A stretch of DNA of 56,258 nucleotides from a virus (IMGVR_UViG_3300046170_000034:1-56258); one strand, 5' to 3'; positions 8,603 through 36,300 are shown, numbered from the stretch's first letter. Numbers and translations: made by a program. The notes: generated from the sequence alone by a model not told the origin.

Positions 8603-8812
8603 ATGGATGCTATACAATTTATAACAAGGTATAAAAGAACCTTGCAGAATCGCGTGGATGACATTAGCATCTCCGTGACAAGCGGCGGAGTTTCCGATAT
8701 GGAGACTTACCGTTCTATGATAGGTGAGATTCAGGGACTTACCTATGCGTTAGATGAACTTCAAACCCTGCTAAAAAAGGATGATTATGACGAAGACCCT
8801 ATTCGTACCTGA
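8603..8812 (+). CDS. Hypothetical protein upstream of GroES
   Basis: 69-aa helical ORF (YRSMIGEIQGL) overlapping the groES start. Confidence 0.7.
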   Translation: MDAIQFITRYKRTLQNRVDDISISVTSGGVSDMETYRSMIGEIQGLTYALDELQTLLKKDDYDEDPIRT

Positions 8813-9221
8813 CCATATTATGCGGCAACAGCGAGCTAAGAAAAAAGCTGAAGAAGAAGCCAAACAAAAACCCCTTACAGAAAGAATCCCACAGCCAACA
8901 GGTTGGCGCATACTCGTCATGCCGTATAAAGGCAAAGACGTTTCTGAGGGCGGTGTTATCATACCAGATCAAGCAAAAGACCGAGAAGCACGGGGCACTG
9001 TTGTAGCCTATGTGGTTAAGGTTGGTCCGCTTGCGTATCAAGATCCCGACAAATTCGGTGCGGAATCCGAACCTTGGTGTAAAGAAGGTGATTGGATTTG
9101 TATTGGTCGGTATTCCGGGTCTCGCTTTAATATAGAAGGCGGTGAGGTTCGCATCATCAATGACGATGAGGTCATTGCAACCATTGTCGATCCAGACGAC
9201 ATAAAGACATACGGAGCGTAG
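8787..9221 (+). CDS. groES: Co-chaperonin GroES (Cpn10)
   Basis: PTGWRILV, mobile loop SEGGVIIPD, VVKVGP, KEGDWI..GRYSG, RIINDDEVIA. Confidence 0.9.
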   Translation: MTKTLFVPDHIMRQQRAKKKAEEEAKQKPLTERIPQPTGWRILVMPYKGKDVSEGGVIIPDQAKDREARGTVVAYVVKVGPLAYQDPDKFGAESEPWCKEGDWICIGRYSGSRFNIEGGEVRIINDDEVIATIVDPDDIKTYGA

Positions 9222-11223: not shown

Positions 11224-12135
11224 ATGGCTATTTCTCGCGCACAACTCGCCAAAGAACTAGAGCCGGGTCTTAACGCTCTCTTTGGTATGGAATATGGTCG
11301 CTACGAAGGCCAGCATGCAGAAATCTTCGACACAGAGTCATCTGACCGTGCGTTTGAAGAAGAAGTAATGCTGTCAGGTTTCGGTGCCGCTCCTGTTAAA
11401 CAGGAAGGTTCAGGAATCGCTTATGACGATGCGAACGAGGCTTATACCGCTCGGTATAACCACGAGACCGTTGCTATGGGCTTCTCGATCACAGAAGAAG
11501 CAGTAGAGGACAACCTCTATGACCGTCTTGGTGCTCGCTATACTCGTGCTCTTGCACGTTCTATGGCACACACTAAGCAGGTTAAAGCTGCATCTGTCCT
11601 TAACAACGGCTTTGCCGCTGGCGCATTTGCTGGTGGTGATGGTGTAGCTCTTATGGCTACTAACCATCCGCTCACAAACGGTGGCACATTCGCCAACGAG
11701 CCGGGCACTGCCGCTGACCTTAACGAAACTTCACTCGAAGACGCATTGATCAGCATCGCTGGTTTTGTTGATGAGCGTGGTTTGGTTATTGCTCTTAAAG
11801 GAATGAAGCTGATTGTTCCACGTCAACTGCAATTCGTTGCAGAGCGTCTGCTTGTATCTAACCTTCGCGTTGGTACTGCGGACAACGATGTAAACGCCAT
11901 CAAGTCATCTGGAATGCTTCCAGAAGGTTACGTAGTCAACGACTACCTGACAGACACTGATGCGTTCTTCATCAAGACTGACGCACCGAACGGCTTTAAG
12001 CACTTCGAGCGTATGCCTTTGGCGACTAACATGGATCCAGATTTCGATACTGGCAACATGCGCTTCAAGGCTCGTGAGCGTTACAGCTTCGGCTTTAGCG
12101 ATCCACGCGCTGTGTTCGGTTCACCGGGCGCCTAG
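11224..12135 (+). CDS. Major capsid protein (HK97 fold, Mu gpT-like family)
   Basis: GGAGG RBS. MAISRAQLAKELEPGLNALFG...FKARERYSFGFSDPR; followed by a terminator. Confidence 0.9.
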   Translation: MAISRAQLAKELEPGLNALFGMEYGRYEGQHAEIFDTESSDRAFEEEVMLSGFGAAPVKQEGSGIAYDDANEAYTARYNHETVAMGFSITEEAVEDNLYDRLGARYTRALARSMAHTKQVKAASVLNNGFAAGAFAGGDGVALMATNHPLTNGGTFANEPGTAADLNETSLEDALISIAGFVDERGLVIALKGMKLIVPRQLQFVAERLLVSNLRVGTADNDVNAIKSSGMLPEGYVVNDYLTDTDAFFIKTDAPNGFKHFERMPLATNMDPDFDTGNMRFKARERYSFGFSDPRAVFGSPGA

Positions 12136-12199: not shown

Positions 12200-12246
12200 T
12201 CCCTGACAGCCTCATGGTGAGGCTGACATTAGCCACGACAGGAGAA
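12200..12246 (+). promoter_or_regulatory. Candidate structured 5' leader RNA
   Basis: CAGCCTCA-TGG-TGAGGCTG hairpin enclosed by a CCTG/CAGG pairing that overlaps the SD AGGAGA. Confidence 0.45.
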
Positions 12247-12250
12247 TTAA

Positions 12251-12712
12251 ATGGCTACGACTACTTTCTCCGGACCTATTAAGGCCGGAACCATCAAGAA
12301 CACAACAGGTTCAACTCTTGGCTCAAACATTGCCAACGTTGGTCAGGTTGTTATGGCTCAGACATTTTCAGTAGATCTTTCAGGCGGCGCTGTTGCGGCC
12401 TCAGTCACTGACGTTGTTATTCCAGCAAACTCTCAGATCATTGACTGTGTAATCGACGTAATTACTGCGGCGAACACTGCAACTAACCTTAGTGTCGGTG
12501 ACACTGTTGGTGGTGCGGCTACAGTCGTGAACACATTTGCAATCGGGACAACTGCTGGTCGTAAGTATCCAACAACTCAGGCTGGCGCTGCATTGGCTTG
12601 GCAGGACACAGGTACAGCGGACATCCGCTTGACTGTTACTGGCTCTGCCGCAACAAACGCAGGTCTTGTTCGCGTTACTATCCTTTATCAGCAGAACAAC
12701 AACCTAGCTTAG
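12251..12712 (+). CDS. Probable virion structural protein
   Basis: AGGAG RBS; T/A/G-rich beta protein starting MATTTFSGPIK. Confidence 0.75.
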   Translation: MATTTFSGPIKAGTIKNTTGSTLGSNIANVGQVVMAQTFSVDLSGGAVAASVTDVVIPANSQIIDCVIDVITAANTATNLSVGDTVGGAATVVNTFAIGTTAGRKYPTTQAGAALAWQDTGTADIRLTVTGSAATNAGLVRVTILYQQNNNLA

Positions 12713-16934: not shown

Positions 16935-17363
16935 ATGGCAACATCAAACGCAGCAACCACCTATCTCGAACACGAAATATTGCAGTTCTTGTTTAAAAAT
17001 AACACGGAAAGCTTTGCTAGCCCGGGCGACAGCATTTATATTGGCCTTGCCACTGCTGTTAGCAGTGCAGAGGGTGGCAGTGTGACAGAGGCTACCTTTG
17101 GAAACTATGCCAGACAACAGGTAGCTGCATCAGCTTGGACAGTTCCAGCCGTTAGCACGGATACTCAGACAGCTACTAACTCAGCTAATGTTGAGTTTCC
17201 AGCGTCTAGCGGAACCAGCAACACGATCACACACGCCTTCGTAGCAGATGCCTCTTCAAGCGGTAATATACTGTTTGTAGGTGCTTTGGACGCTAACAAG
17301 ACAATCGCAACAGGTGATATATTCCGTATCAATGCAGGTAACTTTTCAATAGAATTGAAGTAA
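16935..17363 (+). CDS. Tail/fibre-attachment protein
   Basis: AAGGAG RBS; YIGLAT, YARQ, ITHAFVADASSSGNILF. Confidence 0.7.
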   Translation: MATSNAATTYLEHEILQFLFKNNTESFASPGDSIYIGLATAVSSAEGGSVTEATFGNYARQQVAASAWTVPAVSTDTQTATNSANVEFPASSGTSNTITHAFVADASSSGNILFVGALDANKTIATGDIFRINAGNFSIELK

Positions 17364-17364
17364 C

Positions 17365-18231
17365 ATGGCACTTGTTCTTAGAGATCGTGTAAAAGAAACG
17401 ACTACAACCACAGGAACTGGCACATATACATTAGCTGGGGCAATGACTGGGTTTGAGTCTTTTGGTAGCGTGGGTAACAGTAACACCACCTATTATGGAT
17501 GTAGTGATGGCACCAACTTTGAGGTTGGTATCGGCACATACACGGCTTCTGGAACTACGCTGGCAAGAACCGCGATTCTGCAATCCAGTAACAGCGACAA
17601 CGCTGTTAGCTGGGGATCTGGCACGAAGACTATTTTCTGCACACTCCCTGCGGAAAAGATGTCGTTCCTTGATGCGAGTGGTAACTTAGTAGCCGCTAAC
17701 GGTAGCGCGTTGACAGCACTCAACGCCAGTAACATAGCCTCTGGTACGGTTGCTAATGCGAGACTTGATCAACAACTACAGGATGTGGCGGGTCTGGCTG
17801 TCACAAACGGTAACTTTGTAGTTGGTGATGGCAGTAACTTTGTGGCGGAGTCTGGCGCAACAGCTAGAACAAGTTTGGGTTTAGGAACTGCGGCTGTTTT
17901 AGACACAGGTATATCAAACACCAATGTACCTAAGTTTACATCTGGCGTGGCGGATGATGACTTTTTACGTGTAAACGGCACAGATATAGAGGGTAGATCT
18001 GCGGCGGAAGTGCTGTCAGATATTGGTGGTCAGGCATCACTGACATTTGGCATATCTAACACCAACGCGGTGAAGATAGACAGTGCATCGGTTGCAGACG
18101 ATGAGTACGCAAGATTTACATCAAGTGGGCTAGAAAGTAGATCCACATCAGAAGTGCTGTCAGATATTGGTGGTACAACAGCTACTGATGCGGCTAACGA
18201 GGCGACAGCTTTAGCGATAGCCTTGGGCTAA
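17365..18231 (+). CDS. Tail fibre protein with internal repeats
   Basis: MALVLRDRVKETTTTTGTG. Two GISNTN...EVLSDIGG repeats (24-nt exact repeat at 18007 and 18151). Ends ALAIALG. Confidence 0.75.
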   Translation: MALVLRDRVKETTTTTGTGTYTLAGAMTGFESFGSVGNSNTTYYGCSDGTNFEVGIGTYTASGTTLARTAILQSSNSDNAVSWGSGTKTIFCTLPAEKMSFLDASGNLVAANGSALTALNASNIASGTVANARLDQQLQDVAGLAVTNGNFVVGDGSNFVAESGATARTSLGLGTAAVLDTGISNTNVPKFTSGVADDDFLRVNGTDIEGRSAAEVLSDIGGQASLTFGISNTNAVKIDSASVADDEYARFTSSGLESRSTSEVLSDIGGTTATDAANEATALAIALG

Positions 18232-18243
18232 AGGAGAAGAAGA

Positions 18244-18591
18244 ATGGCTAACACTTTTAAGGTGATCACGAAGGCTGGCGTAACATCTCTGGATGTTATC
18301 TATACTGCCGCTGGTAGCACCACGACGGTTGTACTTGGTTTGATATTGGGTAACACAACCACGAGTCAGATTACATCAACTGTAACATTAAACACGGACA
18401 CAGCTAATCGGTCAGGGGCAAACAACGAAGCCAACCAAGCTGTTGAACTTGTGACTAACGCACCTATCCCAGCGGCTTCTTCATTGGAAATGCTTGCAGG
18501 TAACAAGGTAGTGCTTGAAACAACCGATGAAATTAAAGTCTCAGCTACAGGTGCTGTTGACGTAGCCTTATCAGTGATGGAGATAACCTAA
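18244..18591 (+). CDS. Tail fibre connector protein
   Basis: AAGGAG RBS; MANTFK...SVMEIT. Confidence 0.7.
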   Translation: MANTFKVITKAGVTSLDVIYTAAGSTTTVVLGLILGNTTTSQITSTVTLNTDTANRSGANNEANQAVELVTNAPIPAASSLEMLAGNKVVLETTDEIKVSATGAVDVALSVMEIT

Positions 18592-19040
18592 TGCCGTATC
18601 TTGGTGAGAAAGTCCCCGCTAACTTTCAATCCGTCCCGGCAGTTCAGAGGTTCAACGGTGACGGTAGCGATACAACATTTACACTAAACACAACCGTTTC
18701 ATCCGTGCAGGATGTTTTGGTTTCTGTGGATGGTGTTATTCAGGATAGCGCGGCGTACACAATACCGGATGGCGTGACGCTGACATTTACTGCCGCCCCT
18801 TCCTCTGGCACGGGTAATATCTTTGTTAATTACAATGCACCGCAGGTAGGCACTGTTACACCAGCCGCCGAGAACAAAGGCAACTTTAAGGCAGGTGGTT
18901 TATTCCGTACCAACGCACAAACCCTTACAGCAAATACAACCATCCTTGCTACAGAAAACGCCAATGTAACTGGTCCGTTTACTGTGGCTAGTGGTGTTAC
19001 ATTAACCGTTGAAAGCGGTGGGACATTGGTGACGCTATGA
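18591..19040 (+). CDS. Tail fibre hub protein 1
   Basis: MPYLG; FNGDGSDTTFTL...VSVDGVIQ repeat; C-terminal TLTANTTI...GPFTVASGVTLTV. Paralog of 22491..22952. Confidence 0.7.
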   Translation: MPYLGEKVPANFQSVPAVQRFNGDGSDTTFTLNTTVSSVQDVLVSVDGVIQDSAAYTIPDGVTLTFTAAPSSGTGNIFVNYNAPQVGTVTPAAENKGNFKAGGLFRTNAQTLTANTTILATENANVTGPFTVASGVTLTVESGGTLVTL

Positions 19041-19483
19041 GTACGTTATTAGCAGATACAATTAGAAAAACTGGTGGCAGTTCTGGCGTGGATATCAGAA
19101 TTAAAAATAATTCTGTGTATGAGTCAGAAGGCGGCACAAGTGTTACTCAAAATATGGTGCAAAGTCTAAACAAGGGCTGGGCATCTGTACAAAAATATTC
19201 TTCTAATATTAGCGTTTTTGACTCACTCAATGTTTCGTCAGGAGTCGATGATGGCGTGGGTCACACTACCCTAAATTGGTCAAACAATATGTCAGCGGCT
19301 GGGCATTATGCGGCGGGTGGAATGTCATCTGACCAAAATTATATGTGTGCTAATCAAGGTAGAACTGCGGCGGCAGGAACTGCTCTTACTACTTCCAGTG
19401 GTGCATTTTCTACAGTTAGTGATGCTGGCGCAGACAAAGATTCAAATGTGAATCTTATGGTGATTATGGGAGACCTAGCATGA
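19037..19483 (+). CDS. Small tail-tip paralog 1 (ends GDLA)
   Basis: LLADTI N-terminus, KGWASV...SLNVSSGVDDGVG, GDLA*. Confidence 0.75.
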   Translation: MSTLLADTIRKTGGSSGVDIRIKNNSVYESEGGTSVTQNMVQSLNKGWASVQKYSSNISVFDSLNVSSGVDDGVGHTTLNWSNNMSAAGHYAAGGMSSDQNYMCANQGRTAAAGTALTTSSGAFSTVSDAGADKDSNVNLMVIMGDLA

Positions 19484-20391
19484 GTGAAGTAAAGACAAAT
19501 AAAATCAGCAGTCTTGCTAGTAACAACAACATCACGATTGACCCTGATGGCACTGGCAACACGATTGTTGCGTCGGGCAACGTGGGCATCGGGACTGCAA
19601 CACCATCCAGTTACAACAGTGGTGCAGATGATTTAGTTCTAGCCACCACAGGCGCAACTGGTATCACTATTGCTTCTGGCACAAGCAACAATGGTTCTTT
19701 GTTTTTTGCTGATGGTACTTCTGGTGCAGACCAATATCGCGGTTATATCCAGTATGAGCAAACCAATAATGCTATGGCTTTTGGAACTAACGGTGCTGAA
19801 CGGATGCGTATTGATTCGGGAGGCAATTTACTTATCGGACGCACAAATACAAATAACAACAATGGTGGTCATTATATTACAAGTGGTTATGCTTATCTTG
19901 AACGAAATAATGACTTACCACTTTACTTAAACAGGTTTGGTAGTGACGGAACGATTGCTCAATTCCGTAGGCAAGATTCAGTTGTTGGAAGCATTTCTGT
20001 AACTAGTTCAGGCACTGCCTTTAACACATCCTCAGACTACCGCCTCAAAGAAAATGTTACTTATGATTGGGACGCAACAACAAGACTAAAGCAACTAAAG
20101 CCAGCCCGTTTTAACTTCATTGTTAATGCAGATACCACAGTCGATGGCTTTCTTGCACATGAAGTCTCAAGCATAATTCCCGAAGCGATTAGTGGTACTA
20201 AAGATGAAGTTGAAGTGTGGAAGGACGGTGAAGAACTGCCCGATGGCGTTTCGGCTGGCGATAACAAGCTAGATGCTGATGGCAATACTATTCCTGTAAT
20301 GCAGGGGATAGACCAGTCCAAACTCGTCCCATTGTTGGTCAAGACCATCCAAGAATTAGAAGCGCGTATCACCGCACTGGAGGCTGAATAA
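19480..20391 (+). CDS. Tail fibre with C-terminal Peptidase S74 intramolecular chaperone
   Basis: GNVGIGT and ERMRIDS repeats; TSSDYRLKEN...LKPARF...GFLAHEV...LVKTIQEL. Confidence 0.85.
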   Translation: MSEVKTNKISSLASNNNITIDPDGTGNTIVASGNVGIGTATPSSYNSGADDLVLATTGATGITIASGTSNNGSLFFADGTSGADQYRGYIQYEQTNNAMAFGTNGAERMRIDSGGNLLIGRTNTNNNNGGHYITSGYAYLERNNDLPLYLNRFGSDGTIAQFRRQDSVVGSISVTSSGTAFNTSSDYRLKENVTYDWDATTRLKQLKPARFNFIVNADTTVDGFLAHEVSSIIPEAISGTKDEVEVWKDGEELPDGVSAGDNKLDADGNTIPVMQGIDQSKLVPLLVKTIQELEARITALEAE

Positions 20392-20792
20392 TGGCACTAG
20401 GTAAAATCAAAGCAGATACCCTAGAACACAGCACCGCAGGGTCGCTGGATACAAAGTTCGTTGTAGAAGGTAGTGCGAAGGCTTGGTTAAACCTGAATGG
20501 TACAGGAACAATAGCTATTCGTGACAGCTTCAATGTAAGTGGTGTTTCGGATGGCGGCACTGGAAACTATACGACCAGTTTCACCGCATCTTTTAGCAAC
20601 GCTAATTACTCACATAGTCATACAAACATAACAAACGATGGTCAGTACGGTTTTACAATAGACAGTTCTTTCGCACAGGCGACGGGGTCTGTTTTGCAAA
20701 GAAACGGCTACTGGTCTGGTGTTTCAGGTGAAAACGGGTCTAGCGGCGATTCTTTGTATTTCAATATTCAAGAGTTTGGAGACCTAGCATAA
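20391..20792 (+). CDS. Small tail-tip paralog 2 (ends GDLA)
   Basis: IKADTL, SAKAWLNLNGTGTIAIRDSFNVSGVSDGGTGNYT, GDLA*. Confidence 0.8.
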   Translation: MALGKIKADTLEHSTAGSLDTKFVVEGSAKAWLNLNGTGTIAIRDSFNVSGVSDGGTGNYTTSFTASFSNANYSHSHTNITNDGQYGFTIDSSFAQATGSVLQRNGYWSGVSGENGSSGDSLYFNIQEFGDLA

Positions 20793-21262
20793 TGCAGACA
20801 CCTGAGTTTCAAGGCACACACCTATTCGACCGACTATGTTGGGCAAAGGAAAACCTAGAAGGTCATCAGTCTGACTATCGCGTAGTGTATGAGGACAGTG
20901 TAGATGAATGTGCAAAGATACTGGTTCCTGACCCTAACTGGATGGCGTGTGCGCTACAGGGCGGTATCCTGCCTCCTGTCGAAGTGTATTGGGAGTTAGC
21001 AAAGGATGAGGCACAACCAGACTTCAAGAAGCATACTCGTGGCTACCTGTTACATGACACCAAGCCTATTGATGCTTTAACCGAAGAACAGGCGATTGAA
21101 TACTTAATTATGAAAGACTGCCCACAATCCGTATGGAAAGAGTGGGATAGCGGCAATAAGCCAAAACTGGTAATATGCCGTAAGGAACAGCTTCCAGCGA
21201 CTCGTGAGTGGCGCAATGCTTGGAAGATCACTGAAGAACTAGCCACAGAACAAGCTGCCTAA
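20792..21262 (+). CDS. Hypothetical protein in tail-fibre region (possible assembly chaperone)
   Basis: 156 aa, coupled start, ends LPATREWRNAW. Confidence 0.7.
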   Translation: MQTPEFQGTHLFDRLCWAKENLEGHQSDYRVVYEDSVDECAKILVPDPNWMACALQGGILPPVEVYWELAKDEAQPDFKKHTRGYLLHDTKPIDALTEEQAIEYLIMKDCPQSVWKEWDSGNKPKLVICRKEQLPATREWRNAWKITEELATEQAA

Positions 21263-21273
21263 AGGAGAAACCA

Positions 21274-21642
21274 ATGGCAACATATATCGTAGACAAGGAC
21301 GGGAACCAGATCGATGCTTCCACGGCTACCGTTCCAACAGACCGTCACTTTCGCGGTGCGTGGTCATTGAGCGGAACAGTTATATCCGAGGATATGGATG
21401 CCGCTAAAACTATCTTCCGTGACAAAATCCGTGAAGTGCGCACATCACTGCTTGCAGCAGAGGACGTAGTGTACATGAAGGCACTTGAAGCTGACGATAC
21501 TTCTGCAAAGTCAGCCTCTGTAGCCAAGAAGAATGCACTACGCAACGCACCAGCGGCATCGGCTATTACAAGTGCTGACACAATTGCTAAATTAAAAGCA
21601 GCTTGGGATACGGCTGTACTTGGCGATAGCCCATACGCATAA
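21274..21642 (+). CDS. Probable tail fibre assembly chaperone
   Basis: AAGGAG RBS; DRHFRGAW...KIREVR...KNALRNAP...LKAAW. Confidence 0.65.
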   Translation: MATYIVDKDGNQIDASTATVPTDRHFRGAWSLSGTVISEDMDAAKTIFRDKIREVRTSLLAAEDVVYMKALEADDTSAKSASVAKKNALRNAPAASAITSADTIAKLKAAWDTAVLGDSPYA

Positions 21643-21654
21643 GGGAGATAGACT

Positions 21655-22491
21655 GTGGCGTTAACTAAAGTAGGAAAAGAAGGTGTAACTGGAATTTCTA
21701 ATTCTAGTAATGCTACAGCTATTACCATTGATTCGTCAGAGAATGTGGGAATTGGAAAATCCACTAGCATTGCAGATAGAGTGCATATTGAAAAATCTGG
21801 TGCAAACTGTTTGCTATCAGTCGCAAGAACCAGCGATGGTGCGGCTGGTCGCTTGGTCATGCAACACACTGACACTGTTGGTGCTTTACAAACTACAGGC
21901 TCTGTGCCTTTACTATTTGGTACTGCTGATACTGAACGGATGCGTATTTTAGCCGATGGTAGAACTACTATAGGCCATAATGCGGCTATCAACATTTCTA
22001 TTCTTGGAATTTCAAATAGAAATGCCACCAGTGACAGAATGTTTGCTGTTCATAATGCAGGTGGAACAAGCGGTTACTTCAACCAGATAGCATTTCGGAA
22101 TAACGCTGACAGCGCAACTATCGGTGAAATTGTAAGAGTTAATGACGCATCTGTTTCTTACAACACAACATCAGACTACAGGCTTAAAACCGCAGTCAAC
22201 TACACTTGGGATGCAACCACACGACTAAAGCAACTAAAGCCAGCTAGGTTTGAGTGGATTGTTGATGGCGATGATGCTGTTCCTGTGGACGGGTTCTTAG
22301 CGCATGAAGCGCAGACCGTTGTACCAGAGGCCGTTACTGGCACACACAATGAAGTTGATGACGATGGTAACGCAGTCATGCAAGGGATAGACCAATCCAA
22401 AATCGTCCCACTGCTGGTCAAGAGCCTACAGGAAGCCATCACTAAGATTGAAACGCTTGAGACTAAAGTTCAAGCACTAGAGGACGCATAA
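21655..22491 (+). CDS. Second tail fibre with Peptidase S74 chaperone domain
   Basis: GTG start; ENVGIG, ERMRI; TTSDYRLK...LKPARF...GFLAHEAQ...LVKSLQE. Confidence 0.85.
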   Translation: MALTKVGKEGVTGISNSSNATAITIDSSENVGIGKSTSIADRVHIEKSGANCLLSVARTSDGAAGRLVMQHTDTVGALQTTGSVPLLFGTADTERMRILADGRTTIGHNAAINISILGISNRNATSDRMFAVHNAGGTSGYFNQIAFRNNADSATIGEIVRVNDASVSYNTTSDYRLKTAVNYTWDATTRLKQLKPARFEWIVDGDDAVPVDGFLAHEAQTVVPEAVTGTHNEVDDDGNAVMQGIDQSKIVPLLVKSLQEAITKIETLETKVQALEDA

Positions 22492-22952
22492 TGCCCTACA
22501 TAGGTAAATCCCCAGAGTTCGGTGTACGTAACCGTTTCGTATATCAGGCCACAGCAGGGCAGACTAGCTTCTCTGGTAGTGATGCTGACTCTAAGGTACT
22601 TACCTATCAAGATGGTCTGTACATGGACGTGTATCAGAACGGTGTACTACTCAAGCCGGGAACAGACTACACTGCCACTACAGGCACAACAGTCGTACTG
22701 GTCACAGGTGCATCATCAGGTGACGTAGTTGAGATGGTAGCCTACGATGTGTTCTCTGTAGCCAACAGCTACACAGTGACAGAGAGTGACACACGCTACC
22801 CATTCAAAGGTAACAACAGCATCATCCGCTTGAATGGTCAAAGCATAACGGCAGACATTACTATTGATGCAGATGAGAACGGCGTGAGTGCAGGTCCGAT
22901 TACGCAGGACAATGCCACCGTCACTGTTAACGGATATTGGAGTATCGTATGA
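22491..22952 (+). CDS. Tail fibre hub protein 2
   Basis: MPYIG; ATAGQTSF...VYQNGVLL..DYTAT; C-terminal SITADITI...AGPIT. Paralog of 18591..19040. Confidence 0.7.
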   Translation: MPYIGKSPEFGVRNRFVYQATAGQTSFSGSDADSKVLTYQDGLYMDVYQNGVLLKPGTDYTATTGTTVVLVTGASSGDVVEMVAYDVFSVANSYTVTESDTRYPFKGNNSIIRLNGQSITADITIDADENGVSAGPITQDNATVTVNGYWSIV

Positions 22953-23306
22953 CCAGCGTATTGAATGTAGATAGCATTGCGGCAAAGGACGGTACATCTG
23001 CTGTAACGCTAGACTAAGCAGACTGCGGCTAAAGCATTTGTAGAAGCAAACGATGCCGCCGCATTTTCAAAAAGTTTTAACATTTCTGCTGGTTCAGACG
23101 ATGGAACAGGAGACTATAGCTACAGTTTTATTAATAATTTAGACAGTGCAGATATGGTGGCAAATATTACTTGTGCGCAAAATGCTAACGCCATAGGTGT
23201 TAACAACGGCAGGGCAGCAGGTTCTTTTGATGTTAAGATGTTTACTGATGCTGGTTCGCTTGTAGACAGAGACCATAGCTGTGTAATTCACGGAGACCTT
23301 GCATAA
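22949..23306 (+). CDS. Small tail-tip paralog 3 (ends GDLA), one +1 frameshift near 23010
   Basis: MTSVLNVDSIAAKDGTSAVTL/TKQTAAKAFV...SFNISAGSDDGTGDYS...IHGDLA*. 358 nt (3n+1); missing from the ORF track. Confidence 0.75.
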
Positions 23307-23728
23307 TGGCTAGTCAACTCAAAGTAGATACAATCACAGGAGTAACCACGGCTGGTTCTATTAGCGTGACAGGTGAAGGCAACTCAACCACAACTAATCT
23401 GCAACAGGGATTAACGAAGGCGTGGAATCACTTTGATGGTACTGGCACTGTTGCTATAGATAATTCGTTTAACGTTAGTTCTTTGATAGATTCCACTACA
23501 GGTCAATATGCTAGTGCTTTCACTAATAATATGTCATCAACACAATACCCAAACACAGGTCATTCAAGGCATGATGGTGGTGTTAATGCTTTGTTTTCTA
23601 CCTCTAACAAAGACGATTACCCGCCAATTACAAGCAGTTGTGGGATAGATAGTTTTTCTTCAGATGGAAATCAAAACCAAGTAGATAGTGACCAGATGTC
23701 GCAAGTTATTCACGGAGACCTAGCATAA
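23306..23728 (+). CDS. Small tail-tip paralog 4 (ends GDLA)
   Basis: LKVDTI, TKAWNHFDGTGTVAIDNSFNVSSLID, IHGDLA*. Confidence 0.8.
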   Translation: MASQLKVDTITGVTTAGSISVTGEGNSTTTNLQQGLTKAWNHFDGTGTVAIDNSFNVSSLIDSTTGQYASAFTNNMSSTQYPNTGHSRHDGGVNALFSTSNKDDYPPITSSCGIDSFSSDGNQNQVDSDQMSQVIHGDLA

Positions 23729-24099
23729 TGGCAAGCGAACTTAGAGTAAACACATTAAAGGATGCCTCTGGTAACAACAGCATTGCTACTAGCTTTGTTG
23801 CAGGGGGCAGTGCGAAGGCTTGGGTGAACTTTGATGGTACTGCATCTGGTGCGGCGGCAAGAGATTCATTTAATGTTTCTGGGATGACAGATAATGGTAC
23901 AGGCGACTACACTGTCACATATTCATCTGCTTTATCAGACGCTAATTATTCCACACCATCATCCGCATACAACAGATTTGTAGGTGTTACTGGCGCGGCT
24001 AGACAGACTGCATCTGCTTGTAGACTAGACTGTATTACCACCAGCGCAAATTCAGATTACTCTGTAATCAATGTCGGTATGTTAGGAGACCTCGCATGA
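23728..24099 (+). CDS. Small tail-tip paralog 5 (ends GDLA)
   Basis: LRVNTL, SAKAWVNFDG...DSFNVSGMTDNGTGDYT, GDLA*. Confidence 0.8.
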   Translation: MASELRVNTLKDASGNNSIATSFVAGGSAKAWVNFDGTASGAAARDSFNVSGMTDNGTGDYTVTYSSALSDANYSTPSSAYNRFVGVTGAARQTASACRLDCITTSANSDYSVINVGMLGDLA

Positions 24100-25133
24100 G
24101 TAAAGCCGCAGAACTAGCCGCACTGATTGGTTCGCAGTCGGCGTTGTCGGACAGGAACCTGATTATCAACGGCGCTATGCAGGTGGCGCAACGTGGTACG
24201 TCAAGTACAGGATTTGTAGGTGCGTCTAGCTATTTAACTGTTGATAGATTTAAGTTAGAAAACGGAAGTAGCGGAACTTTCACAGTTACACAAGCTACTG
24301 ATGCCCCTACAGGATTTGCAAACAGCCTCAAGTTTGATTGCACAACAGCAGATGCAAGCCCTGATTATTTTTTAATTGTGCATCGTATGGAAGGGCAAAA
24401 CCTTCAACATCTACAAAAGGGGACATCTTCTGCCAAAAAGACTACATTATCTTTTCATGTGAAGTCTAACAAAACAGGGACGTATCAAGTCAATCTTAGG
24501 GATGTGGATAATAGCCGACTCATAGGTGCTACTTATTCTATATCTTCTGCTAATACTTGGGAGAAAAAGATTGTAACCTTTGCTGGGGATACGTCAGGAG
24601 TGTTAGGTAATGATAATGGTAATTCTCTGTCTCTTGAGTGGTGGCTTGCTTCTGGTTCAACCTACAATAGCGGCGCAGTTCCAACAGCTTGGGAAGCCAT
24701 AGCTAACGGCGACAGAGCCGCAGGGTTAAATGTAGCCATTGGTGCAAGCACAGATGATGAATTTCTTATCACTGGCGTCCAGCTTGAAATCGGCGAACAG
24801 GCCACGTTTTTTGAACATCGGTCGTTTGGCGATGAACTACAACTCTGTAAACGCTATTTTCAAGTACATGATGATATGCAACTTAGAGGAAATCCTGACG
24901 GGGGCTTTGAAAGGATTGAAATATACTGTCCGTTAGGTGTCTCAATGAGAGCAAATCCGTCAAGAGGAGTGATAACAGAAGGAAACAGCACTAACATTCG
25001 TAGTTCTACTACCACATATTCAGGTTTTGTTTTAGCAAATAGAACGGCTGGATGCACTCTTTCTTTAGAGTCAAACAGTGCTGGATTAGCGTCTTTTGAC
25101 AATAGGACTGAATCACTGGATGCGGAGTTATAA
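24096..25133 (+). CDS. Tail fibre/receptor-binding protein with carbohydrate-binding-like domain
   Basis: RNLIINGAMQVAQRG...DRF, ITGVQLEIG...FEHRSFGDELQLCKRYFQ. Confidence 0.75.
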   Translation: MSKAAELAALIGSQSALSDRNLIINGAMQVAQRGTSSTGFVGASSYLTVDRFKLENGSSGTFTVTQATDAPTGFANSLKFDCTTADASPDYFLIVHRMEGQNLQHLQKGTSSAKKTTLSFHVKSNKTGTYQVNLRDVDNSRLIGATYSISSANTWEKKIVTFAGDTSGVLGNDNGNSLSLEWWLASGSTYNSGAVPTAWEAIANGDRAAGLNVAIGASTDDEFLITGVQLEIGEQATFFEHRSFGDELQLCKRYFQVHDDMQLRGNPDGGFERIEIYCPLGVSMRANPSRGVITEGNSTNIRSSTTTYSGFVLANRTAGCTLSLESNSAGLASFDNRTESLDAEL

Positions 25134-25300
25134 TGATGAATATTACATCAGCAAAATATTTAAATAACGATAGTAAAGTAATTATTATTGTTGCAGAGGG
25201 GCAAAAATTGTTTGTCCCACTAGACCCAGCCAACCGCCACTACGCAGAAATCATGCGTCAGGTGGACGCTGGCGAGTTGACTATAGCCGATGCTGACTGA
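25133..25300 (+). CDS. Small fibre-associated protein (55 aa)
   Basis: MMNITSAKY...VPLDPANRHYAEIMRQVDAGELTIADAD*; coupled at both ends; below track cutoff. Confidence 0.7.
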   Translation: MMNITSAKYLNNDSKVIIIVAEGQKLFVPLDPANRHYAEIMRQVDAGELTIADAD

Positions 25301-26015
25301 TGTTTGGTGAACTGGCATTATCTGAAAGAGCATTAGCCGCGCAAGGAATTATAGAGTTCGGCGTAGCTGAGATGATCGGTACGTCTAGTAAGGCGTCCGT
25401 GGCATCTGGTATAATGTCCGGTGTTATAGATGCGTCGGCCAACTTTACGCAGTCTACCAACGCGATGTTTATAGCTAGTAATACCTCTACACAGATAGCT
25501 AGCTTTACCCAAAGCACTGATGCTTTGAGGGCAAGAACAGCAACCGCAGAACTTGAGTCTGTGTTTGTACAGTCTTCAACCGCTGCGCTAGTTCGCAAGC
25601 GGCGTATCAACACAGATCGCTAGCTTTACGCAATCGGCAGATGTCTCGTTGATTGCATCGGGCATAGCTGAGATGAGCTTTAACTTTACGCAGTCATCGG
25701 CGGCTATTAATATTCGCATCCGGTGTGGTTATACAGGACTTTAACTTTACTCAGTCCGTTACTCCATCTGTAGTATTTTCTACATCTGTAGATATAGAGT
25801 CATTATTTACTCAGTCTGTTCTTGGTGGGTTGCTTGAATTTGGTGTGGCAGAAATGAGCGCATCATTTATAATGACCGCAGATGGTCGCATATTATGGGA
25901 ACAGATTATACCTACTGGCACCGAAAACTGGACGACAATTTCGCATACAGGTGATACATGGACACCAATCAACGCTAGTGGTACAATCGAGCAATGGACG
26001 GAAAAGGTGGTCTAA
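25300..26015 (+). CDS. Repetitive virion protein (FTQS repeats), two +1 frameshifts
   Basis: ~22-aa repeats continue across breaks near 25594 and 25715. Total 716 nt (3n+2). Confidence 0.7.
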
Positions 26016-27146
26016 ATGGCTAGTACATTTACAGCAAATAGTGGCATAGAAAAACCCGGCTCCGGCGAACAGGCTGGAACGTGGGGATCCACAACAAACG
26101 CAAACTTTGATATTATTGATCGTGTGTCTAACGGCGTAGGTGCGATTACCCTATCTGGTACAACGCACACGCTAACCACAACTGATGGTGCGTTATCCGA
26201 CGGACATTACAAGGTGCTGGTTCTTGGCGGATCTCCCAGTGGCACAAACACTGTTACGATCAGTCCCAACGATCAGGACAAGTTGTACTTTGTACATAAC
26301 ACAACAAACCAATCTGTTACTTTTACGCAAGGCAGTGGTGGAAACGTAACTGTAGAAGCGGCAAAAACAAAAATTATATTTGCTGATGGCGCAGGAAGCG
26401 GTGCAAAAGTCACTGACTTTACCGCGATTATGCAGTTTACATTGGATGCCGCAAACCTAACAGGGACTATTGCTAACGCTCGTCTTGATCAGCAATTGCA
26501 AGATGTTGCTGGGCTAGCGGTTACAGACGGTAATATAATTGTAGGCAACGGAAGCAACTTTGTAGCTGAGAATGGATCTACAGCGAGAACATCATTAGGT
26601 GTGGCAATAGGCAGTGATGTTCAAGCGCATGACGCAGACTTAGATGCAATAGCTGGTCTTACATCCGCCGCTAACAAAGGTATTCAGTTTACAGGTTCCG
26701 GATCTGCTGGAACATATGATTTAACTGCCGCAGGTAAAGCTTTGCTAGACGATGCTGATGCCGCCGCACAAAGAACAACGCTAGGTCTTGGCTCTGCCGC
26801 CACTTTAACAGCGGGAACTTCCGCTAATAACGCAGTTCAACTTGACGGCTCTGCTAAATTACCTGCTCTTGACGGATCACAACTAACAGGTATATCGGAC
26901 TTAAAGTCGGCAGGAGCGGTGGGTGCATACGCTATTATATGGTCTAATAACGGGGGCAACGGCGTTGCAATAGGAAATACTTTTACTGCGCCCGGAAACC
27001 TCAATGTAATAATGGTTTCCGCAAGTGGAAATGTGCTCGTAGATACGCCGTACATTGCAAATGGAACTTGGCGGGTTATGAGCGGTGAGTTAAGTAATAA
27101 TAGTGGCACTACTGATAACCGTGCATTATGCCAACGAATCTCGTAG
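26016..27146 (+). CDS. Tail fibre / tail-base protein
   Basis: GEQAGTWGSTTN N-terminus; shares the ANARLDQQLQDVAGLAVT...ARTSLG block with 17365..18231. Confidence 0.75.
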   Translation: MASTFTANSGIEKPGSGEQAGTWGSTTNANFDIIDRVSNGVGAITLSGTTHTLTTTDGALSDGHYKVLVLGGSPSGTNTVTISPNDQDKLYFVHNTTNQSVTFTQGSGGNVTVEAAKTKIIFADGAGSGAKVTDFTAIMQFTLDAANLTGTIANARLDQQLQDVAGLAVTDGNIIVGNGSNFVAENGSTARTSLGVAIGSDVQAHDADLDAIAGLTSAANKGIQFTGSGSAGTYDLTAAGKALLDDADAAAQRTTLGLGSAATLTAGTSANNAVQLDGSAKLPALDGSQLTGISDLKSAGAVGAYAIIWSNNGGNGVAIGNTFTAPGNLNVIMVSASGNVLVDTPYIANGTWRVMSGELSNNSGTTDNRALCQRIS

Positions 27147-33390: not shown

Positions 33391-36300
33391 GTGGAAGAAG
33401 ATGATCTTTTCAAGGGATTGATTGATGACCCCGTAGCAGACGAGGGTCTTACAGAAGATTCTCTTTTTGAGGGTCTTGTGGATGGAGCCGTCATGGCTCC
33501 TGCACAACCGGAAGTGGCCGACGAGCAAGACGAGGGCGTAGTTCAAGAGGCTATAGAAGGCGCAATTTCTGGACTTATAGCTATACCTCAAGGGATTCTA
33601 GAACTTGGTGCTATTGGTGTAGATCTTGCGGCGGGAACCAGTCTTTCATCTGCTGTGACAGAAAAAGCAGAAGGTCTAAGAGAATACTTAGGTCTCGATC
33701 CTACTGGTCTTGTTGGTAAAGGCACGGAAGCTATCTTTCAATATGCCATTCCCGGTCTTGGAGCCGCAGGCGTTGTAAGTAAACTTAGTAAGGTAGGAAG
33801 ACTATCCAAAGCTTTAGGAAAAGGTAAGGCGTCACCATTAAAAAACAAAGACGGTACACTAGGGTTAACACGCGGAGAAAAGCTTGGCCTTGGTGCACAG
33901 CAAGTTGCCGCCGCAGGTCTAGCTGATGCTGTTGTGGCTACTGACGGTACAACTACTATTGCAGACTTCTTTGAGGGCGGTCCCACACAAACTGATCAAG
34001 AAATAGGGTTGGCAGGTCGTGAAGAGGCGCTTCGCAGGTTAACCAATAAATTATCCGTGGGTGCAGAGGGCGCTGCGGCAACTATAGTTGCACCAGCAAT
34101 TCTTGCCGGAACCGCAAATGTAGCAGGTCGTGCACTTACTCAAGACACTATAGCTGGTGTTACCAACCCACTTGCAAAAGGTGTTCAGCTAGCGGCAAAG
34201 ACTACTATCAAAGGCGGTCAAAAAGTAAAAAAAGTTTTTGATGACGCAGAAGCGGATCGTATATTCCGCCCTGAACAACAGGGTGCTCTGGGTCAGGGAC
34301 TAGCTGGGTTGTCATCTATATTTAGATACAGAAGTTTTCTTCCTGAAAGAATTGCGGAACAGCGTTCTTTAATTTCTGGTGATGTAGAAGCTCAGATCAA
34401 AGGTGCTAAGTCTGTGCTTGCTGGTCTAGATAAAGAGATAGATGTTGTTTTAAAAGAAGCCGCAAAAGTTACATCAAAAAAAGACTCGCCACTTATCCGT
34501 CAAAAGATTTTTACTAACCTCGAAGAGTTTATGACAGGGCCTACCAAGGAAGCCAGACTTCGTGCCTTTGACGAACTGCCTGAAAACGTACAGCTTAAAG
34601 CAACTGAAATGCGTAAGCTTGTCGATAGGTTAAGTAACGACGTATTAAATAGTAACTACGTAAAGTCTTTAGATGGGGTTTCCGGGAAAAAAGGTTCGGG
34701 GATCACGGACATGGGAGCTGCGCTCAGATCCGAAATCGAGGAAAACTTAAATAAGTATCTTCGTCGTCGCTACCGCATCTTTGAAGACGCTAAATATGTG
34801 CCAACGGAAGAATCTATTGAGGCTGGTATAAAAGGATTTATGGGCAGTAAGCGTCAGACAATTAAAGAACTGTCGCGCCTTGTTAATAATAAAGCAGTTC
34901 CTGCTGAAAACAGAGCGGGACTGATGGAAAAGTACGGCCTAATTGGCGACCTTGATGACCCCACTAGCTTTAGGCTTGTGGGTGACGAGGTAACTCCAGA
35001 GCAAGCAAAGCAAGCTGTAGATGAATTCATAAAAAGACACCGCCCAAGAACAAGCAAAGGTCAAACTACTTTTACCTCTAGAGTAGAAGAGTTTGGGATC
35101 CAGCCCGGCATGTTTAAACAGCGCATGCAAAGGTCAGACTTTAAACGCGCACTACTGGGTGAGGTGTCAGACACTAGAGAAGCATTTCTTGGAACTGTGT
35201 CTGATCTAGCTGAGTTTCGTGCTGTTGATGACTACTTTGGCAGTATCGCAAATGCTTCTAGATCAAGTGAAAACATGAGTAAGTTTTTTGTGTCACCAGA
35301 AAAACTTCGACTTATGAATCCCGATGAATTAGACAACTACGTAGTTTTAGGCAAGGGCGATGACGTAGGAGACTCTGCGTGGGGGTCTTTGCAAGGCTTC
35401 GCTGTTCCTAACGCTTTGTATAACGACATGACCCGCTTGGTTATAAATGACATGGGCACGTCCGGTAACCTTGCAAGAAAAGCATACTCCGGATTCCTGC
35501 GATTAAAGTCGGGAGCGCAATACGCAAAGACTGTTTTATCTTTTACCACGCAAATACGTAACGTAACCTCTGCCGGACTTATGGCTTTGGCTCAAGGTAA
35601 TGTTGGTAAAGGCGCCAACCTCGGTGAATCCGTTCGTCTTGTGATGGATGACATCTTCGACATGAAACCAGAAGATGCGTTACGAGAACTACAGGAAGTG
35701 CAGGCTCTTGGTGTTACAGGAACGCAAGCAGAGTTACGAGAACTACAGGATCTTATCAAAAAAGGTCTAGGCTTTACCGAAGACGCGACTGTCGATGGGG
35801 TAAAGGTGGGTCGTAAGTTTGGCTCCTCGCTAACAGATAGCACGCTTGGTTCGTTTATATCCAAAACAGGAAAGGTTGCTCAGAACTTATATCAGGGCGG
35901 TGACGACGTTTGGAAAATATACAACTACAAGTTTGAGCAAAATAAGTTACGTAATGCTTTACGTTCGGAGACTTTGGAAAACCAGTACAAGGCACTCAAC
36001 GGGGCACCCGTTCAGCAGGGTACGGAAATAACCTCTGACATGGTAAACCGAGCATATAAAGAAGAAGCTGCACGGATCGTAAGAAATACAGTTCCTAACT
36101 ATAACCTAGCTCCAGAGGCCATACGCGGTCTTCGTAAACTACCTGTCGGTAACTTTATCACTTTTCCATACGAGATTCTTCGGACAGGTGTTAACACCAT
36201 TTCTCGTGCGGTTGATGAACTTGCTAGTGACAATGCCGCTATCAGGCAAATAGGATTGCGTCGCATAACCGGAGCCATGTCAACCTACGCTATTGCTCCT

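Follow-up and report, generated by a model that had tools for sequence, protein, structure and literature searches.

Podophages of the K1-5/SP6 and Klebsiella KP32 types carry a T7 gp17-like N-terminal anchor that bears secondary spikes via conserved N-terminal peptides. In the long-tail-fibre adhesins gp37/gp38 of T-even phages, specificity is swapped via recombination between conserved motifs, as summarized by Trojet et al. (2011; PMC3157838), citing Tetart et al. (1996, 1998). The podophages GP4, VP1 and A1002 are described as having chain-like fibres, with many small (140-170 aa) proteins on one tail that sit as dimers on a rope protein (PMC13730344). Marine podophages contain metaviromic islands in which, in the account given by Mizuno et al. 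(2014; PMC3909814), recruitment of virome reads is high over the N-terminal part and low over the C-terminal/C1q head. HMO-2011-type phages are placed among the most abundant marine viral groups (PMC9038755; PMC6918029). Their host-recognition locus is not described in the comparative papers on the group consulted here; “tail fiber,” “hypervariable” and “mosaic” have 0 occurrences in one of these (PMC9038755).

We analysed a near-complete genome resembling Puniceispirillum phage HMO-2011 (NC_021864), here called the window: the whole stretch of 56,258 nucleotides under IMGVR_UViG_3300046170_000034. We think it probable that five of its ORFs are mini tail fibres, belonging to a marine podophage of HMO-2011 type, that share a dual-coded junction and have heads exchanged on a fixed scaffold. 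The tail-fibre locus reads as follows.

18591..19040, + strand: anchor A1, 149 aa, T7 tail-fibre N-terminal domain only (PF03906); heads the first sub-array.
19037..19483, + strand: GDLA mini-fibre 1, 148 aa, scaffold position 'a', slot-specific N-terminus MSTLLADTI (phrog_11355, E 4.3e-9).
19469..19483, + strand: junction 1, GGAGACCTAGCATGA, encoding G-D-L-A-stop and a GGAG Shine-Dalgarno; overlaps the ATG of the 19480 gene.
19480..20391, + strand: slot 1, a 303-aa fibre whose C-terminus is a Peptidase_S74 intramolecular chaperone (PF13884, E 3.2e-5).
20391..20792, + strand: GDLA mini-fibre 2, 133 aa, position 'b' (phrog_11355, E 7.4e-18).
20778..20792, + strand: junction 2, with a TAATG overlap.
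20792..21642, + strand: conserved scaffold genes P (20792-21262) and Q (21274-21642), no role assigned.
21655..22491, + strand: slot 2, a 278-aa S74-chaperone fibre (PF13884, E 1.2e-6).
22491..22952, + strand: anchor A2, 153 aa, starting MPYIG as does A1; heads the second sub-array (PHROG tail-fibre matches).
22949..23306, + strand: GDLA mini-fibre 3, position 'c', frame broken by an extra base, 23012 (phrog_11355, E 4.7e-7 for the C-terminal piece).
23292..23306, + strand: junction 3.
23306..23728, + strand: GDLA mini-fibre 4, 140 aa, in slot 3 (phrog_11355, E 3e-15).
23714..23728, + strand: junction 4.
23728..24099, + strand: GDLA mini-fibre 5, 123 aa, position 'd', the copy modelled (predicted β-sandwich, homotrimer; phrog_11355, E 1e-15).
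24085..24099, + strand: junction 5.
24096..25133, + strand: slot 4, a 345-aa fibre (MSKAAEL…) whose start is supplied by junction 5 (phrog_4492, E 1.1e-62).

A1 matches PF03906 with 25.7 bits (cut-off 25.2, E 1e-5) and positions 1-159 of 373 of phrog_18673 (E 9e-39); A2 has no Pfam match, only the PHROG tail-fibre matches. Nucleotide identity to HMO-2011 is 75% for A1 (gp41), 89% for A2 (gp33) and 82% for P and Q (gp36 and gp35), and a block of similarity with HMO-2011 begins at 20777.

The 15-nt junction GGAGACCTNGCATRA occurs five times in the window, on the + strand only (19469, 20778, 23292, 23714 and 24085), with 0 mismatches at all five sites in a search that permitted 2 (chance expectation 0.64; 0 of 100 shuffles reached five copies). 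As the original prediction stated, each copy ends a GDLA ORF of 118-148 aa: 19037-19483 (148 aa), 20391-20792 (133 aa), 23306-23728 (140 aa), 23728-24099 (123 aa) and the split copy considered below. A stop overlaps the next ATG at all five junctions (ATGA at 19480 and 24096; TAATG at 20792, 23306 and 23728), and that ATG lies 7 or 10 nt downstream of GGAG, which bears out the proposed Shine-Dalgarno (SD) and overlap. This is the layout of translational coupling, an overlapping stop/start with the SD lying, at a workable spacing, within the preceding gene, and downstream translation may be coupled to upstream translation in vivo. Because the junction holds both SD and start overlap, every module would carry the translation start signals for its follower. 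All five copies match phrog_11355, a 131-position profile annotated “tail fiber protein,” and a Pfam scan returned no family at E <= 0.01 for any GDLA protein. The expected conserved core with divergent interiors is evident in a 10-sequence alignment: K, S.N.S, D and G are invariant, whereas the paralogs are merely 22-35% identical to the first copy.

The third copy had been described as frameshifted, and two frames are indeed present: the frame of ATG 22949 stops at TAA 23015-23017, and a second open frame, 23013-23306, ends in GDLA. Removing base 23012 would yield a single 357-nt frame. In each of two near-identical public runs, X1 and X2, the sole contig across 23012 lacks this base and is otherwise identical to the window (in X1, record 6, 0 other letters differ and there is 1 gap), and run X4 keeps it (covering depth 12.6); the comparison rests on X1, X2 and X4, X3 being without coverage at that place. 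With X1 and X2 lacking base 23012 and X4 retaining it, the break is a polymorphism or an assembly error, not a family property.

To judge from their sequences, the array is common to HMO-2011 and hundreds of uncultured relatives and is not peculiar to the window. HMO-2011 has the same scaffold, the same junctions and five GDLA genes (gp40, 37, 34, 32 and 29); within its gp29-gp41 region, slots 1, 2 and 3 carry other modules than the window, slot 3 holding a C1q-head gene plus a small gene where the window has mini-fibre 4. The NC_021864 annotation calls the GDLA genes “tail fiber protein,” nothing more. Gene order follows a fixed scaffold, A1 - G - slot - G - P - Q - slot - A2 - G - slot - G - slot, where G is a GDLA gene, and P and Q are found in all spanning loci. 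Number and content vary among relatives, as had been anticipated: there are 4-6 GDLA copies in the 21 loci spanning the region, and a slot may be filled by a GDLA gene, by an S74-chaperone fibre, by a C1q head plus chaperone or by other modules. In slot 1 relatives have a GDLA gene or, accompanied by a chaperone, either a D39-type gene or a C1q head; slot 2 always begins MALT(K/Q)(V/I), whatever its head, with 23 different contents counted; and other contents also occur in slot 4. The GDLA terminus is present in 305 of 321 family ORFs from 82 related loci (83 sources) and, in a search of 1.84 billion proteins, in 126 of the 129 single-domain proteins among the best 150. The head family comprises 29,829 representative proteins at E <= 1e-3.

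By these comparisons, what is usually exchanged is an intragenic head that runs from the KAW motif up to GDLA, the N-terminal 30-45 residues remaining slot-specific. The original prediction of swappable tip modules therefore stands in that heads and whole slot genes are exchanged, and is refined in that the head within the gene is the usual unit. The same head recurs behind different slot-specific N-termini; among the cross-position pairs listed with at least 65% identity, 17 of 21 share a head behind an unrelated N-terminus. Breakpoints had been expected at the junction, and joints there are visible at nucleotide resolution: in cross-position pairs nucleotide identity collapses directly past it, from 45-58 of the 60 nt before the stop to 14-31 of the 60 nt after it in the 7 pairs examined. 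For blocks of at least 90% identity, 48 of the 99 left ends lie between -50 and +5 relative to a G stop. Contig joints in X4 run 19502->20388 across slot 1 and, within mini-fibre 5, from 23798, 23824, 23825 or 23840 to 24084/24085.

Head diversity is large, 201 unique heads from 82 loci forming 156 clusters at 50% identity. Most head pairs, even within one scaffold position, are only 30-35% identical, as might result from point mutation under diversifying selection with ends under purifying selection and no cassette movement; we regard such divergence in place as highly unlikely, since it is contradicted by heads 86-97% identical that follow unrelated N-termini and are themselves followed by unrelated genes (L014/L065, L046/L048 in two pairs, L023/L073 and L039/L056), and by slots in which one slot-specific N-terminus precedes folds as unrelated as C1q and S74 fibres. 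The swaps are also very improbable as chimeric contigs joined at conserved flanks, even though the relatives are almost all metagenome assemblies, and such assemblies can be chimeric at conserved stretches. Assemblers do struggle at this locus, as the fragmentation of the Logan contigs of four runs shows: none among those listed spans the whole stretch, and many pieces are only partly aligned, from 33 of 103 for X1 to as many as 159 of 622 for X4. However, a cultured isolate, HMO-2011, has the same architecture with different slot contents, contigs from separate metagenomes (L010 and L013) repeat one uncommon gene order, 'G C1q c30 G P Q', and the k-mers usual for such assemblers exceed the identity stretch shared at the 3' joint.

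A Pfam scan of 51 ORFs, covering the locus and the larger ORFs elsewhere, turned up no invertase or other recombinase and no reverse transcriptase, in agreement with the original prediction. A diversity-generating retroelement was accordingly rejected, there being no reverse transcriptase in that set. Gin/Cin/Min-type invertase switching was rejected too, with no recombinase match in the same 51 ORFs and with 0 reverse-orientation copies of the junction in the window, where they were sought, against 5 forward.

Mini-fibre 5 was modelled, its head as a β-sandwich (pLDDT 82.9). The best VIA-align matches, at the Z of about 8 typical of best scores, are the C-terminal domains of the Pam1 tailspike (7eea_A; Z 8.6, rmsd 1.8, 69 aligned) and the phiAB6 tailspike (5js4_A; Z 8.1, rmsd 2.9, 90 aligned); domains of R-pyocin fibres (Z 5.6) and H-type lectins come next. 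Foldseek against the PDB gave no match for the model at E <= 1e-3, and no solved structure for the head family was detectable by sequence; BFVD gave 56 matches at E <= 1e-3, the named ones mostly tail fibres. The predicted head resembles the β-sandwich distal domains of tailspikes and fibres, the fold matches being modest. As a predicted homotrimer it scores an ipSAE of 0.97 against 0.00 for the best control, in a prediction with three copies and a custom alignment, a set-up that differs from the calibration, in which 20 of 30 proteins solved as one-chain pairs and 1 of 23 solved as single chains reached the mark; between runs, 96% or more of the contacts recur, with a partner pLDDT of 95 or higher. 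The predicted interface includes residues 119-122 (LGDL), contacting, in the neighbouring chain, W32 (KAW motif) and F48 (SFN motif), with 32-119, 32-120 and 48-119 among the lowest-error contacts. The model is thus consistent with the suggestion that GDLA lies in a trimer interface.

The domain ends its chain in longer proteins also. Among the 120 best longer homologs (217-821 aa), single-copy members carry it at the extreme C-terminus, the chain stopping just past its last strand; multi-copy chains also exist, and in fused multi-head proteins GDL closes the domain without a gene boundary (hGDLV or hGDLS, linker, KAW). Part of the conservation of GDL is therefore structural. About 62 of the 120 end in other fixed motifs, of IFR/VFR type, and because of these other ends and the fused proteins the protein motif needs no recombination role.

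Codon use at the junction is fixed far above background. Among 257 unique proteins the terminal Gly is GGA in 253, Asp is GAC in 215 and Ala is GCA in 238, whereas other invariant residues of the same proteins use their codons freely: conserved internal Asp is GAT 170 / GAC 85 at one site and GAT 139 / GAC 86 at another, and conserved internal Gly is GGA 98 / GGT 95 / GGC 36 / GGG 25. Synonymous-site conservation above background, as predicted, thus holds for the G, D and A codons; the Leu codon varies, and KAW at the 5' joint is without codon constraint (K = AAG 148 / AAA 108). None of the outcomes that the original prediction named as refuting it was observed. GGAG precedes 181 of 184 unique starts after G genes, at a spacing of 7 or 10 nt. 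It is the usual SD in these phages, found in 199 of 457 unique upstream regions not following a G gene, and AC follows it at merely 9 of those 199.

It is possible, though we would not favour it, that the 15 nt are kept only as the end of a trimeric head and as SD and start, recombination occurring anywhere, selection retaining joints at borders, and the junction having no crossover-site role. The closure of domains by GDL in fused proteins, the LGDL in the predicted trimer interface and the free codons at the KAW joint all fit, as do the embedded SDs and overlapping stops found throughout this operon. Gene ends of the locus that are not G stops are enriched for block ends as well, 75 of 222 lying within -15..+50 of them. 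A joint at a gene border is thus nothing peculiar to the junction, and such joints could reflect selection among random recombinants. Against this stand the GAC preference (215/257), for which neither protein needs nor SD needs nor any other cause tried accounts, and the fact that the junction alone is the 3'-joint sequence common to cross-position pairs. Tentatively, the junction might be a selected, portable 12-15-nt crossover site that also carries the next gene's start; with the KAW frame, heads would plug into 4-7 docking positions per virion, crossover being guided by the shared 12-15 nt as microhomology. HMO-2011-type phage would then be a multivalent, recombination-driven host-range system without a dedicated enzyme, and fused three- to nine-head relatives and split arrays would be two states of one multi-head fibre.

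Comparison across loci establishes, at the level of sequence, the dual-coded junction and head exchange, along with the variable slots, dual constraint and breakpoints. For mini-fibres on a fixed scaffold, we suggest the following mechanism. The N-terminal ~30-45 slot-specific residues would form a trimeric stalk or docking peptide, followed by a lectin-like β-sandwich head running from the KAW…SFN motif to GDLA. As protein, the junction would end the head, packed on the neighbour's W32/F48 in the predicted trimer; as RNA, GGAG would serve as SD and the last bases would overlap the next start codon. Co-occurring relatives would exchange heads and whole slot genes, with joints at KAW (5') and the junction (3'), giving a very large population-level head library on a conserved backbone with no invertase or reverse transcriptase. 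The GDLA proteins would be displayed on virions, bind receptors and affect host range.

The anatomy of the locus is now concrete: two anchors, slot-specific putative docking peptides and a very large library of small lectin-like heads, with a single dual-coded junction that would keep every recombinant translatable. It is a clean case of codon-level constraint from overlapping protein and translation-start functions, and offers natural rules for fibre-head exchange in a cultivable pair, HMO-2011 and SAR116 strain IMCC1322.

The GDLA array is a variation on known tail-fibre modular shuffling. Like the anchor-based podophages with several receptor-binding proteins, it has anchor-only proteins with the T7 tail-fibre N-terminal domain, slot-specific N-termini and interchangeable heads; unlike them, it combines a pair of anchors with as many as ten small fibre genes, whose products' attachment is putative, and heads that are ~90-residue β-sandwiches rather than large depolymerase β-helices. 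With GP4, VP1 and A1002 as described (PMC13730344) it would share the decoration of one tail by many small fibre proteins; the GDLA proteins are of another family and are predicted trimers, in contrast to the dimers of those phages. The window also encodes a GP4 gp80-like protein (16935-17363; PF23140, E 8.3e-30), a family to which the GDLA proteins have no match. Like the phages with metaviromic islands, these are marine and infect Alphaproteobacteria; the portion of that account drawn on here (PMC3909814) treats coverage patterns of single fibre/C1q genes and describes no multi-gene array, shared junction or codon-level constraint, and junction and head exchange would offer a mechanism for such islands. 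Membership of the gp37/gp38 family was rejected for want of a sequence relationship, no G protein, as noted, matching a Pfam family. The system nevertheless works like T-even gp37/gp38, as summarized in the source cited above: short conserved motifs flank hypervariable segments that bind receptors, putatively so in the GDLA case, chimera joints fall in or near those motifs, and it is the phage population at large that holds the library. Unlike the gp37/gp38 motifs, the GDLA 3' motif is common to 4-6 paralogous genes per genome, with swaps between slots seen by comparison of genomes, and it is at once the end of one protein and the SD and start of the next gene.

The junction sequence GGAGACCTNGCATRA occurs five times in the window, every copy exact and on the + strand; chance would yield about 0.64 occurrences even with two mismatches allowed, and five copies arose in none of 100 shuffles. 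At every copy the junction consists of the final four codons of an ORF, G-D-L-A, plus the stop, which overlaps the start of the following gene.

Junctions in the window
19469, + strand: end of GDLA copy 1; ATGA overlap before 19480
20778, + strand: end of copy 2; TAATG overlap before 20792
23292, + strand: end of copy 3 (split); TAATG overlap before 23306
23714, + strand: end of copy 4; TAATG overlap before 23728
24085, + strand: end of copy 5; ATGA overlap before 24096

The intact GDLA genes encode mini tail-fibre proteins of 148, 133, 140 and 123 aa, and the split copy spans 22949-23306. All copies match phrog_11355 ('tail fiber protein') by PHROG profile comparison. Pairwise identity is just 22-37%, the positions in common being K.W, S(F/L)N.S, D and G. 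The original prediction of five paralogs with a common core, divergent interiors and one junction doubling as the next start is thus borne out.

The third GDLA gene had been read as frameshifted, and indeed one extra base at 23012 disrupts its frame. In two public sequencing runs (X1 and X2) the sole contig spanning this position lacks the base and is identical elsewhere; in X4 the base is retained in the covering depth, and in X3 the place is uncovered. The orthologue of the split copy in the cultured Puniceispirillum phage HMO-2011, gp32, has an intact frame. We conclude from the X1 and X2 contigs and gp32 that the break is a polymorphism or an assembly error. A programmed frameshift was set aside, given the plain absence of the base from those contigs and the undamaged frames of orthologues.

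The IMG/VR record (56,258 bases, an estimated 97% complete) encodes a terminase, SU10-type portal and adaptors, capsid protein, lysozyme and a GP4 gp80-like fibre protein, together with a family-A DNA polymerase, AEP primase, SNF2 helicase and C5 methylase. An Rfam scan gave no match inside the fibre locus, a stretch of about 7 kb. Several further features were observed along the window.

Further features of the window
8781-9221: Cpn10 (GroES-like) gene within the head module
12201-12253: Mu-gpT-DE RNA (RF03012; 71.6 bits, E 9.6e-15), just 3' of the major capsid gene (11224-12135)
16935-17363: 142-aa protein matching PF23140, fibre I protein gp80 of podophage GP4 (E 8.3e-30)
17365-18231: 288-aa protein next to the gp80-like gene, with two 44-nt repeats coding ...EVLSDIGG
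25437-25756: 18-nt motif, four times, coding (N/S)FTQS, in two small genes without a family match (25300-25623, 25725-26015)
33391-37641: 1416-aa ORF without a Pfam match
50089-51174, - strand: C5 cytosine methylase

The available text on phages GP4 and A1002 describes gp80-type proteins as dimers strung on a rope protein, and the 288-aa protein might be a candidate rope protein. It has a 55-residue segment (...NARLDQQLQDVAGLAVT...) 76% identical to one in the product of 26016-27146; the remainder of the two proteins, both fibre-like, is unrelated. This segment could be another conserved frame for module exchange.

Among cultured phages, HMO-2011 (locus L001), whose cultured host is 'Ca. Puniceispirillum marinum' IMCC1322, alone has full-length relatives of the GDLA proteins; its gp40, gp37, gp34, gp32 and gp29 terminate in GDLA, encoded by the same 15 nt save one TTA Leu codon. 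An IMG/VR scan with one GDLA copy found 525 relatives, the best 80 of which were retained as loci. By family profile, the window, L001, L002 and these 80 loci contain 321 family ORFs, 305 of which have GDLA as their last residues (82 loci plus the window); the 16 other ends are GELA (five), GDLT (two), single variants and a few that are seemingly broken. Against 1.84 billion representative proteins the profile gave 29,829 matches at E <= 1e-3. The 150 top-ranking matches include 129 that are single-domain proteins (<=170 aa), 126 of them ending in GDLA, and 20 carry 2 to 9 matched domain stretches per chain. Longer fibres outside the GDLA subfamily have the same domain at their C-terminus, the chain again halting just past the last strand, but the fixed endings differ: in the top 120 longer homologs they are AIFR 36, SIFR 10, AVFR 8, SVFR 6 and TIFR 2 (about 62), then VFGN 11, with GDLA in just four.

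In three-head chains the internal domains end in hGDLV or hGDLS, with some ten residues separating this end from the next KAW, indicating that GDL is a domain end at the protein level even without a gene boundary. Fused relatives carry 3, 5, 7 or 9 head domains per chain, in 294-1328 aa (P0121-P0131, P0004, P0127, P0130, P0142), and P0002 resembles two neighbouring mini-fibre genes read as one. Their existence points to interconversion between multi-head fibres and split arrays. A DNA search from the fused P0127 found two loci, both single-head fibres with a GDQ end. Among 185,579 species genomes searched for prophage copies, seven loci were found, all distant core-only matches, and none held a GDLA array.

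The codons of the GDLA end were counted over 257 unique GDLA proteins.

Codon use at the terminal and at conserved internal residues
Terminal Gly: GGA 253, GGG 4
Terminal Asp: GAC 215, GAT 42
Terminal Leu: CTC 103, TTA 82, CTA 53, CTT 12, TTG 7
Terminal Ala: GCA 238, GCG 18, GCT 1
Internal Asp, two positions: GAT 170, GAC 85; GAT 139, GAC 86
Internal Gly: GGA 98, GGT 95, GGC 36, GGG 25
Internal Lys: AAG 148, AAA 108

Codons at conserved internal residues are near the gene background; those of the terminal Gly, Asp and Ala are far from it. Synonymous-site conservation above background had been named as support for the junction's role and is found at Gly, Asp and Ala, but Leu uses five codons. 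The GGA codon and the next G form GGAG, which is the usual Shine-Dalgarno sequence (SD) in HMO-2011-like phages: ahead of starts that do not come after a GDLA gene, it occurs in 199 of 457 unique regions. After GDLA genes it is present at 181 of 184 unique starts, the spacing to the start being 7 or 10 nt in 180 cases, in agreement with its predicted role as SD for the next gene. The A of ATGA comes from the GCA codon; in two GCGTGA cases, GTG would replace ATG as start. An extended SD was rejected as the cause of the GAC preference, AC following GGAG at just 9 of 199 other sites, and SD and start signals leave this preference unaccounted for. We conclude from the compared genes that the junction is constrained as a protein end and as an RNA signal at once, and adjoining genes are probably translationally coupled there in vivo.

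Longer loci have a common gene order, M - A1 - G - [slot 1] - G - P - Q - [slot 2] - A2 - G - [slot 3] - G - [slot 4], where G is a GDLA gene, P and Q are scaffold genes, and A1 and A2 are T7-gp17-like anchors of about 150 aa each. A1 is the T7 tail-fibre N-terminal domain alone (PF03906); a PDB search by sequence with A1 gave just weak antibody and protease rows, and phrog_18673 joins an A1-type anchor and a fibre with a Peptidase_S74 (S74) chaperone in one 373-position profile.

Contents of the variable positions
Slot 1: GDLA gene, 11 loci; S74-chaperone fibre, 3; D39-type plus small gene, 2; C1q head plus small gene, 1; others, 2
Slot 2: 23 different contents
3' of A2: order G G G F commonest (27 loci); C1q, four-G and P-Q-ending orders also found

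Of 21 spanning loci, one has four GDLA genes, eight have five and twelve have six, so both copy number and slot content vary among relatives, as the plug-and-play proposal anticipated. N-terminal residues track the slot and not the head, the KAW...GDLA part: slot 2 proteins always begin MALT(K/Q)(V/I), slot 1 proteins MS(T/E/L)(I/V)K, and those at scaffold position d MASELRVNTLKDAS. Comparison of these loci shows a fixed scaffold carrying variable slots, and the N-termini probably attach to the anchors.

In four loci, including L058, L010 and L013, G G G P Q replaces G G G F after A2, an order implying that the two sub-arrays are permutable, with the junction again the joint. The slot-2 S74 fibre of the window ends ...LEDA* on GAGGACGCATAATG (22478-22491), which is GDLA-junction-like and overlaps the next start; similarity to HMO-2011, where slot 2 holds a GDLA gene, starts at 22468. 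In HMO-2011, small genes beside non-G heads of D39 and C1q type (gp38 and gp30; L001 3448-3768 and 6756-7001) have a common ...ATDW... motif and are putative chaperones of fibre assembly; no companion gene of this type accompanies GDLA heads.

Comparing heads between scaffold positions gave 21 pairs with an identity of 65% or more across 70% or more of the head. One pair, L034/L038, is a labelling artefact; in three the entire gene lies in new surroundings, with P next instead of F; and in 17 one head stands behind unrelated N-termini, the switch falling at the KAW motif. Examples of head identity are L014/L065 (97%), L046/L048 (94% and 86%), and L023/L073 and L039/L056 (87%). Seven pairs compared base by base are identical at 45-58 of the 60 nt ahead of the stop and at 14-20 of the 60 past it (31 when related genes follow), identity dropping off directly past GCAT. 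Blocks of similarity linking the window to HMO-2011 begin at 20777 and 23287, each at a junction. Blocks of at least 90% identity across 82 sources have 224 unique internal end points inside the fibre region. The 99 left ends include 48 situated -50..+5 from a GDLA-gene stop, and the 125 right ends include 57 that are 200-400 nt ahead of such a stop, about 100 nt into a GDLA gene. Against a special role for the junction, when distances are taken to the closest non-G stop, 75 of 222 are in the range -15..+50. Breakpoints at the junction, as predicted, are thus evident both in the seven pairs and in the left block ends.

Contigs from X4 match the window to 23798-23840 and resume at 24084/24085, and others jump 19502-20388 and 21671-22480. 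Matches on either side are short here (27-36 nt; 20-39 nt over the X4 joints as a whole, at 90% likeness), and other organisms are a frequent source of joints of this kind; they only hint that relatives have flanks, not interiors, in common. The 201 unique position-assigned heads fall into 156 clusters at 50% identity. Consistent with diversification by neither enzyme, no invertase or reverse transcriptase was found among 51 ORFs scanned, a set whose small ORFs are those of the locus. We conclude from the compared loci that different slots have heads in common, the joints being the KAW motif and the junction, and suggest that the 12-15 common bases may act as a crossover site rather than being mere survivors of selection.

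A structural model of copy 5 (mean pLDDT 82.9) places an eight-strand β-sandwich at residues 29-119, the first 28 residues being of low confidence. The highest-scoring structural neighbours of the model are C-terminal domains from tailspikes and fibres of phages, with modest scores (Z 5.5-8.6).

Structural matches of the copy 5 model
Pam1: Z 8.6
phiAB6: Z 8.1
LKA1 gp49: Z 6.5
AP22 gp53: Z 6.3
R-pyocin fibres: Z 5.6
H-type lectins: Z 5.5-6.1

Foldseek with the head model found nothing in the PDB at E <= 1e-3, and BFVD yielded 56 matches at that threshold, the named ones mainly tail fibres; by sequence, the family profile found noise alone in the PDB (E 0.72), with no solved relative detectable. 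Three-copy prediction gave an ipSAE of 0.97 in all three runs, versus 0.00 for the best of three controls, with at least 96% of contacts common to the runs and partner pLDDT of at least 95. The ipSAE mark was met in calibration by 20 of 30 proteins solved as one-chain pairs and 1 of 23 solved single chains, from which the trimer job differs in having three copies and our own alignment. The predicted interface takes in residues 1-30 and 119-122, so in the model most of the GDLA end lies at a homotrimer interface, which bears on the proposed test of its burial in a trimer. The lowest-error contacts include W32 (KAW motif) with 119 and 120, and F48 (SFN motif) with 119; the two conserved frames of the swappable head therefore pack against each other across subunits in the model. 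These predictions support, short of showing, subunit binding in a head trimer; the heads may bind receptors and affect host range.

A literature search for GDLA with 'phage' returned nothing relevant, and the searched portions of HMO-2011-group papers, a set outside which the original genome paper falls, hold no description of the array. For marine podophages, a coverage signature of host-recognition genes is described (PMC3909814). In T-even phages, conserved motifs frame hypervariable adhesin segments and exchange occurs at those motifs (PMC3157838); the GDLA array appears to follow the same principle. What appears to be new is that one junction serves as protein end and translation start, common to 4-6 paralogous mini-fibre genes per genome, and that this junction is also the 3' joint of head exchange, exchange between slots included.
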